NCBI RefSeq assembly: GCF_003334305.1
Contig: NZ_QOWS01000089.1
From: Escherichia coli
GTDB taxonomy: Bacteria > Pseudomonadota > Gammaproteobacteria > Enterobacterales > Enterobacteriaceae
Direction: 5' to 3' (one strand)
Length of the DNA stretch: 221 bases
Of this stretch, positions 1 to 221 are shown one piece after another. A model generated the notes under the pieces. It did not search any database. It saw nothing but the letters and a program-made list of their open reading frames with translations, and was not told where the DNA came from. The stretch's first letter is position 1; each line of letters opens with the position of its first letter. The position numbers and the translations under genes were made by a program.

Positions 1-181
1 ATTGCTTCAAGAAATCGAGATGTGTTTCCCCGAAATCCTCTATATCTTCCCAACTTTCTGCACCAGAAATAACGGCAAAAATAGTCAATAGTAGGATGCC
101 TGACAATTTATGCTCTACTTTCCAGGCTTATCTGTAATCGGGAATAATAGAAATATGTTCCATCAATTTTTTAAGTTCCAT
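1..181 (-). pseudogene. ISAs1-family transposase (H-repeat-associated-protein-like), 5' portion; frame interrupted by in-frame TAA at 130-128; 3' end lies beyond position 1
   Basis: Minus-strand ATG at 181-179 with an AAGGTG SD 5 nt upstream. Translation is MELKKLMEHISIIPDYR, then TAA (130-128), then the same frame is open for 42 codons to the window edge ([42 protein letters not shown]). Both parts match, from memory, the N-terminus of E. coli H-rpt/ISAs1 transposases ([33 protein letters not shown]...[19 protein letters not shown]), where the stop position is Gln. No alignment was run. Confidence 0.6.
128..181 (-). CDS. Literal 17-codon ORF (MELKKLMEHISIIPDYR*), interpreted as the truncated N-terminal fragment of the transposase rather than an independent gene
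   Basis: ATG 181-179, SD AAGGTG at 192-187, stop TAA at 130-128. A second in-frame ATG lies at 163-161. Any product would be a non-functional transposase fragment. Confidence 0.3.
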   Translation of the reverse strand: MELKKLMEHISIIPDYR

Positions 182-186
182 TTGTT

Positions 187-192
187 CACCTT
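187..192 (-). promoter_or_regulatory. Shine-Dalgarno sequence (AAGGTG) for the transposase start codon
   Basis: Plus-strand CACCTT at 187-192 is AAGGTG on the minus strand; 5-nt spacer (AACAA) to the ATG at 181-179. Confidence 0.6.
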
Positions 193-200
193 ATTTATGT

Positions 201-206
201 AAGGAG
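201..206 (+). promoter_or_regulatory. Shine-Dalgarno sequence (AAGGAG) for a plus-strand start at 216
   Basis: Perfect AAGGAG core, 9-nt spacer (TATTTGATC), then ATG at 216-218. It may instead be a chance match inside the IS terminal region. Confidence 0.4.
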
Positions 207-215
207 TATTTGATC

Positions 216-221
216 ATGTAT
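216..221 (+). CDS. Possible 5' end of an unidentified plus-strand ORF (only ATG TAT visible), divergent from the transposase
   Basis: ATG at 216-218 with a strong SD at optimal spacing. Two codons are visible, so coding potential and product cannot be assessed. Confidence 0.3.

Follow-up and report, generated by a model that had tools for sequence, protein, structure and literature searches.

Identity and Composition of the Window

What can a short, AT-rich stretch of DNA from an insertion sequence tell about the element it derives from, and about the genes that lie around this element? The question is raised by a stretch of 221 nucleotides of Escherichia coli, hereafter called the window, to which an earlier note had attributed a G+C content of about 34%. 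Assuming that the window belonged to an insertion sequence of the ISAs1 family, the note had guessed from family knowledge that its surroundings may be an accessory locus.

The figure for base composition proved accurate: 76 of the 221 bases (34.4%) are G or C, with a gradient from ~40% at positions 1-60 down to ~25-27% at positions 141-220. The E. coli genome has a G+C content of ~51%, and the 15-30 kb loci that we sampled range from 48 to 53%. The low G+C content of the window exceeds chance relative to its host (P = 6e-07 in a simple binomial comparison with 50.8%), and equally AT-rich windows of 221 nt account for only 3-9% in five E. coli loci of 15-30 kb each. Most of the comparably AT-rich windows fall in Rhs tips, in the 5' ends of H-repeats, in other AT-rich accessory open reading frames (ORFs) and in intergenic DNA.

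Over all its 221 bases the window is 100% identical to a segment of the chromosome of K-12 MG1655 (NC_000913 736785-737005, corresponding to positions 11786-12006 of our K-12 extract, L003), which spans the end of the spacer following ybfQ and the start of ybfL. Nucleotide identity to the other H-repeat copies of K-12 is also high (ybfQ 94.6%, yhhI 91.4%, ybfD 91.0% and ydcC 90.0%), as expected of an H-repeat of the Rhs-associated kind. We take the ybfL copy to be H-rptC2, the middle one of the three tandem H-repeats that lie downstream of rhsC; the names H-rptC1, C2, C3 and B are said to have been given to the H-repeats of Rhs elements by Zhao et al. in 1993. We hold it highly probable that the window, read in reverse complement, corresponds to positions 104-324 of a 1,290-bp ISAs1-family (ISEc1-like) H-repeat in the allele of K-12 ybfL, a pseudogene that would act as passive portable homology.

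Such DNA is widespread in the species. For 2,662 of the 5,426 complete genomes of E. coli, the best match is a copy at least 99% identical to the window, and some H-repeat match is found in 5,337 of the 5,426, at a median of 4-5 places per genome. Within the 221 bases K-12 ybfL (b0705) does not differ from the window, a TAA at codon 18 included. Other strains carry these 221 bases at three further kinds of locus, and identity to ybfL therefore does not fix the location of the window. Since the window contains no flank and exact copies of it are present at no fewer than four sites, it could come from any of them. Exact matches in the plasmid collection are to several E. coli 'plasmids' of 0.28-4.9 Mb, for which no annotation is listed at the match; the largest of these are chromosome-sized and probably represent mislabelled chromosomes or fragments thereof. 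In the phage collection, only a 1.5-kb record (92% identity) and a Salmonella contig (76%) were matched, and no link to phages emerged there.

Anatomy of the Element

The complete element measures 1,290-1,291 bp in K-12 ybfL, yhhI and ydcC and in the copy of strain E2865. Homology among copies starts at the left inverted end, CAGGGAAAGATCA, which lies 103 nt beyond window position 221, whereas the right end, AATCTT(G/T)CCCTG (given as AATCTTGCCCTG), is an imperfect inverted repeat of the left one. The window corresponds to element positions 104-324 and thus contains neither end. ISfinder describes the ISAs1 family as having elements of ~1.2-1.5 kb with terminal inverted repeats that begin with CAGGG. 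Both length and terminal repeats of this kind are present in K-12 ybfL, yhhI, ydcC and the E2865 copy.

For target-site duplications, we considered direct repeats of 8-10 bp, as applies to ISAs1 elements. The copy of strain E2865 at the yafV locus (1,290 bp, L002 14898-16187), which contains the window exactly, has a perfect 10-bp direct repeat, GCGTTAAACA, on its two sides, and nine of the ten bases of this flanking repeat match in strain NCTC9064. The repeat around the E2865 copy, a putative target-site duplication, suggests that the yafV site was once reached by transposition. No flanking direct repeat was found around K-12 ybfL (which sits in a tandem array), yhhI or ydcC. According to a previous study, H-repeats sit at Rhs C-terminal tips and their transposition has not been observed (PMC3032704).

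The Transposase Frame and Its Interruption

The minus strand of the window carries the beginning of a transposase gene, with the following features:

Positions 2..181, minus strand: start of the H-repeat transposase ORF (ISAs1 family), codons 1-60, from Pfam and NCBIfam matches
Positions 128..130, minus strand: in-frame TAA at codon 18, from the alignment with K-12 paralogues
Positions 104..106, minus strand: in-frame TTG at codon 26, where the feature of the K-12 ybfL pseudogene starts (736900)

The frame opens with an ATG at positions 181..179 and leaves the window at position 2, base 1 being the first base of codon 61. When the stop is read as Gln, the 60 residues encoded in the window match the Pfam domain DDE_Tnp_1_assoc (E 2.8e-17); residues 8-60 fall in this N-terminal domain and cover positions 2-54 of PF13808, that is most of it. 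The same 60 residues have a sole NCBIfam hit, to transpos_ISAs1 (NF033564; 9.6e-08, 31.6 bits), which remains under the 70-bit cutoff because only 60 amino acids are present. On the same model, 414.6 bits are reached by the full-length parent ORF, for which K-12 ybfL was used with codon 18 changed back to Gln. This ORF has 378 codons and shows the domain order of the ISAs1 family, namely PF13808 (DDE_Tnp_1_assoc) at residues 8-94 (9.9e-32) followed by the catalytic PF01609 (DDE_Tnp_1) at residues 102-343 (7.1e-31). Judged by every sequence criterion testable, the element in the window belongs to the ISAs1 family, and the family assignment that had simply been assumed beforehand is thus borne out by the Pfam and NCBIfam hits on the window and by the score of the parent ORF. 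Two plus-strand ORFs of 29 and 30 aa were rejected as candidate genes, for nothing supports them and they run antisense to the transposase frame, whose own support is strong.

Codon 18 is CAA (Gln) in all four K-12 paralogues, ybfQ, ybfD, yhhI and ydcC, and the TAA of the window is read from this alignment as a single C-to-T nonsense change. Starting from the normal ATG, translation yields at most a 17-residue peptide, and the copy cannot supply its own transposase. With its frame interrupted in this way, the window copy is a pseudogene that cannot transpose on its own. The annotation agrees: RefSeq tags 'internal stop' on those sampled copies whose feature spans codon 18, and the K-12 record has ybfL as a pseudogene.

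Apart from codon 18, the full-length TAA copies contain no further stop or frameshift over 378 codons. Such intactness is unusual for an old pseudogene and may reflect continual patch recombination with intact paralogues. The nonsense allele has almost wholly replaced CAA within the ybfL-type haplotype. Using the window with TAA changed back to CAA as the query, we found the CAA form of the same 221 bases only in strains 357900 and VCSW8, two of the 5,426 genomes, as against ~2,660 with TAA. Both CAA-form copies (L017 and L018, 4001-4221) are C-terminally truncated and sit at the rhsC locus; they could be either the surviving ancestor or revertants. A protein search with the 60-residue N-terminus returned no intact full-length protein of this haplotype, only fragments of at most 105 aa. 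None of 100,044 species representatives was hit by a 45-mer across the stop (first base of the stop codon given as Y), which means that the exact haplotype is absent from the representative genomes, that of E. coli included.

The lack of any lesion beyond codon 18, together with the near fixation of the TAA allele, might also be taken to mean that translation re-initiates after the stop, for instance at the TTG of codon 26, and produces an N-terminally shortened transposase or a regulator, the upstream ORF of 17 codons then being a leader peptide. The annotation of K-12 would fit this reading, for the ybfL feature starts from that TTG (L003 11901), 75 nt after the ATG (11826), and TTG is the only re-initiation candidate near the TAA. 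There is no good Shine-Dalgarno sequence ahead of it, however, and a protein begun at codon 26 would have lost the first third of the DDE_Tnp_1_assoc domain (residues 8-94). Moreover, the copies are marked as pseudogenes in both RefSeq and K-12, several TAA copies are also truncated at their C-terminus, which does not point to selection for an intact ORF downstream of the stop, and recombination with intact paralogues explains the intactness equally well. We therefore regard re-initiation as very unlikely and retain the view of the window copy as a pseudogene.

Leader and RNA Features

The remainder of the window belongs to the leader of the transposase gene. The features of the leader are given below, together with a stem-loop that lies within the coding sequence:

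Positions 182..221, minus strand: last 40 nt of the 143-nt H-repeat leader (element positions 104-143), from an alignment of seven copies, the left-end motif and the element ends
Positions 187..192, minus strand: AAGGTG, similar to a Shine-Dalgarno sequence and 5 nt ahead of the ATG, from sequence and alignment
Positions 187..206, minus strand: small hairpin CTCCTTA-N6-TAAGGTG pairing the ribosome-binding site, from RNA folding
Positions 15..33, minus strand: terminator-like stem-loop TCGGGGAAACACATCTCGA, followed by TTTCTT, within the coding sequence, from a consensus match only

Where the window has AAGGTG the H-repeat paralogues have AAGGAG. A U.U mismatch weakens the hairpin of the window, to which folding assigns -3.5 kcal/mol (z -0.43), whereas the intact form of the yhhI type, CTCCTTA-N6-TAAGGAG, has a predicted stability of -8.0 kcal/mol (z -2.7); in ybfD the hairpin is retained via a G.U pair. 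By analogy with other insertion sequences, it may limit translation from read-through transcripts. The stem-loop in the coding sequence (L003 11974-11992) is one of two terminator-like structures in the region, against 0.5 expected, and is probably without function. It is also present in ybfQ.

A structured RNA was considered for the window as a whole and discarded, for its fold is no more stable than those of shuffled sequences (z -0.73). Both strands of the window matched no Rfam family at E values up to 1, and a promoter scan around the 5' end of the element found no excess of sites (4, compared with 4.4 in shuffles).

Genomic Context of Exact Copies

To see in which surroundings the window occurs, we considered 13 genomes evenly spaced down the ranking of exact window matches. 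All 13 copies have Rhs tip or O-antigen genes on their upstream side: 12 adjoin an Rhs element, and the 13th lies within an O-antigen cluster. Each of these 12 copies is directly preceded by an Rhs core extension and the small ORF that follows it. The copies fall into four recurrent arrangements:

rhsC locus (5 genomes): rhsC, ybfB, Rhs core fragment (ybfO), ybfC, ybfQ, copy, ybfD, ybgA, phr
yafV locus (4 genomes): Rhs core protein with ydcD/yncI-like genes or dsORF-h1, copy, yafV, ivy, fadE
pptA locus (3 genomes): Rhs core, dsORF-h1, truncated copy, pptA, yddH
O-antigen locus (1 genome): galF, copy, GT4 glycosyltransferase, wzx, O3 family

The same context is found in K-12 and in the two top-listed genomes outside the sample, namely 120899 (rhsC locus, like K-12) and E2865 (yafV locus). 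In all these genomes, the 13 sampled ones included, the Rhs tip or O-antigen genes lie within 0.3-1.5 kb upstream of the copy. The opposite flank consists of core genes (ybgA-phr, yafV-ivy-fadE or pptA-yddH). The guess of an accessory locus was therefore right for every sampled copy, each being beside an Rhs element or in an O-antigen cluster, as far as the upstream side is concerned; it does not hold for the downstream side.

Two side observations concern individual loci. The O-antigen copy (L010 4507-6276) has a divergent left end, and its homology ceases close to the 3' end of the element, features that identify it as a remnant. In E2865, a type VI secretion cluster lies directly upstream of the Rhs element of the yafV locus (L002 1-10498) and contains several pseudogenes: an internal stop interrupts tssA, a frameshift affects tssK, and tagH is incomplete through truncation.

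The base composition of the element was compared with that of its host, as the earlier note had proposed, and the difference is clear. The whole element has a G+C content of ~40%, as against ~51% for the genome, and only 29% in its first 200 bp; the transposase ORF has a G+C of 0.41 and a GC3 also of 0.41, versus a GC3 of 0.52-0.68 in the flanking core genes. Within the Rhs loci, the rhsC core has 59% G+C and the tip ORFs ybfB and ybfC have 31-37%. The window owes its AT-richness to the foreign composition of the whole element with respect to a host of ~51% G+C, and this composition agrees with a foreign origin. The low G+C belongs to the insertion sequence itself, where it is most pronounced towards the 5' end, and is not direct evidence on the neighbours.

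One could then argue that neither low G+C nor the identity of the insertion sequence is informative on the neighbourhood, and that the copy is simply one of an insertion sequence scattered among ordinary core genes. One flank is indeed always core (ybgA-phr, yafV-ivy-fadE, pptA-yddH or galF), and relatives ~91% identical to the window are present on small plasmids without any Rhs element. Against this stand the Rhs tip or O-antigen genes upstream of the copy in all 13 sampled genomes, in K-12 and in the two top-listed genomes; scattered insertion would not yield four recurrent sites of only two kinds. This possibility is extremely unlikely in our judgement, and the association of the window with Rhs and O-antigen loci is the reading we follow. 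A host of similar G+C and flanks of core housekeeping genes, which had been named in advance as observations that would speak against an accessory locus, were not what we encountered.

Mosaic Structure and Recombination among Copies

The presence of identical 221-base segments at different loci can be examined by comparing each copy along its length with the H-repeat types of K-12. This comparison was carried out with loci L002, L008, L010, L011, L012 and L013 against the K-12 extract L003. The yafV copies have 20 consecutive informative sites of the ybfL type, between element positions 127 and 362, whereas their sites up to element position 99 and from 431 onward are of the yhhI or ydcC type; the chance of such a run of 20 sites under random placement is ~2e-14. 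The pptA and O-antigen copies have the same ybfL-type block as the yafV copies. The block, with the TAA included, extends from approximately element position 100-127 to 362-431 (~240-330 bp) and is identical at the rhsC, yafV, pptA and O-antigen loci. It surrounds the window in what is the most divergent stretch of the element, with 88-91% identity between types versus 95-100% elsewhere.

The sharing of this block by copies that are otherwise of different type indicates, on the strength of these sequence patterns, recombination among H-repeat copies. The Rhs elements appear to have taken part in such exchanges. A module consisting of Rhs, ydcD, yncI and H-repeat, which K-12 has at pptA, is found next to yafV in other strains; its left junction is common to the pptA and yafV sites, and the right flanks differ. 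The ydcC copy of K-12 has the same left junction as the yafV copies, that of E2865 among them, together with a different right flank (on the pptA side), and the block is absent from it.

Alternatively, the TAA element could have transposed as such to the four loci, mobilised in trans by the transposase of intact copies such as yhhI and ydcC, with no recombination involved. The putative 10-bp target duplication around the E2865 yafV copy and the coexistence of intact paralogues in the same genomes speak for this mechanism. Trans-mobilisation moves whole elements, however, and only the internal block (~100-127 to 362-431) is common to the loci; the yafV and pptA copies belong to another type both at their left end and over their 3' two-thirds, and K-12 ydcC, whose left junction is that of the yafV copies, lacks their block. 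We consequently give trans-mobilisation little probability as the cause of the present distribution and favour patch recombination among copies.

From the mosaic patterns and the shared junctions, we infer that the H-repeat today would be mainly passive portable homology at Rhs and O-antigen sites. Recombination between its copies would relocate Rhs modules and swap internal patches of the element; such patch exchange may have spread the TAA block among loci and, at the same time, may keep the remaining sequence of the pseudogene looking intact. The spread of the block might also have been favoured by selection, either because the family was thereby silenced to the gain of the host or because the truncated product, or the 17-residue peptide, interferes with intact copies. 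We think this quite unlikely; neutral hitch-hiking on the exchange of Rhs modules is an alternative for the same spread.

A separate rearrangement is seen at the rhsC locus of some strains (L001 15041-15799, L014 3041-3799, L017 and L018), which have one truncated copy of 759 bp. Its 5' part is of the ybfL type and its truncated 3' end is as in ybfD. It looks like the product of a deletion by recombination between ybfL and ybfD in the tandem arrangement of K-12.

Relation to Known Elements

Besides ybfL, the known relatives of the window include yhhI (linked to RhsB), ydcC (linked to RhsE) and ISEc1 of ISfinder, which are the same element of 1,290-1,291 bp with the same inverted ends and an ISAs1-family protein. 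Their identity reaches 95-100% over most of the length but only 90-91% inside the window, where they differ by having CAA in place of TAA, AAGGAG in place of AAGGTG, and a leader longer by one A. In other genera, the family is represented by its prototype, ISAs1 of Aeromonas salmonicida, and by the rfb-linked IS1358 of Vibrio cholerae; the H-repeat belongs with them by the NCBIfam ISAs1 model and the pair of Pfam domains. IS1358 is linked to O-antigen regions, and this link is paralleled by the one exact copy of the window in an O-antigen cluster of E. coli. The association of H-repeats with Rhs and O-antigen loci has been known since the 1990s.

Comparable situations have been described for polysaccharide loci. 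An H-repeat remnant lies at the recombination junction of the O-antigen cluster of Salmonella enterica group D2, for which the authors made a comparison with K-12 yhhI (PMC3715488), and an ISAs1 transposase is present inside a novel O-antigen cluster of E. coli (PMC9705854). The Salmonella remnant resembles the present case in being an H-repeat at the junction of a polysaccharide cluster; in Salmonella DNA, the window finds no better match than one of ~76% identity.

Implications

The pseudogene whose 5' end makes up the window is already known and catalogued for E. coli. It is nothing new in kind, and the importance of the window is limited to correct annotation. A window of 221 bases derived from a repeat is not assignable to a single locus; even so, a guess on its context made from family knowledge alone proved to be verifiable. 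For the block-wise spread of a nonsense allele, we found no description in the accessible literature, dated 2011-2021. The mosaic around the nonsense block is a small example of patch recombination among the copies of an insertion sequence, and it may explain why an old pseudogene looks intact in other respects.
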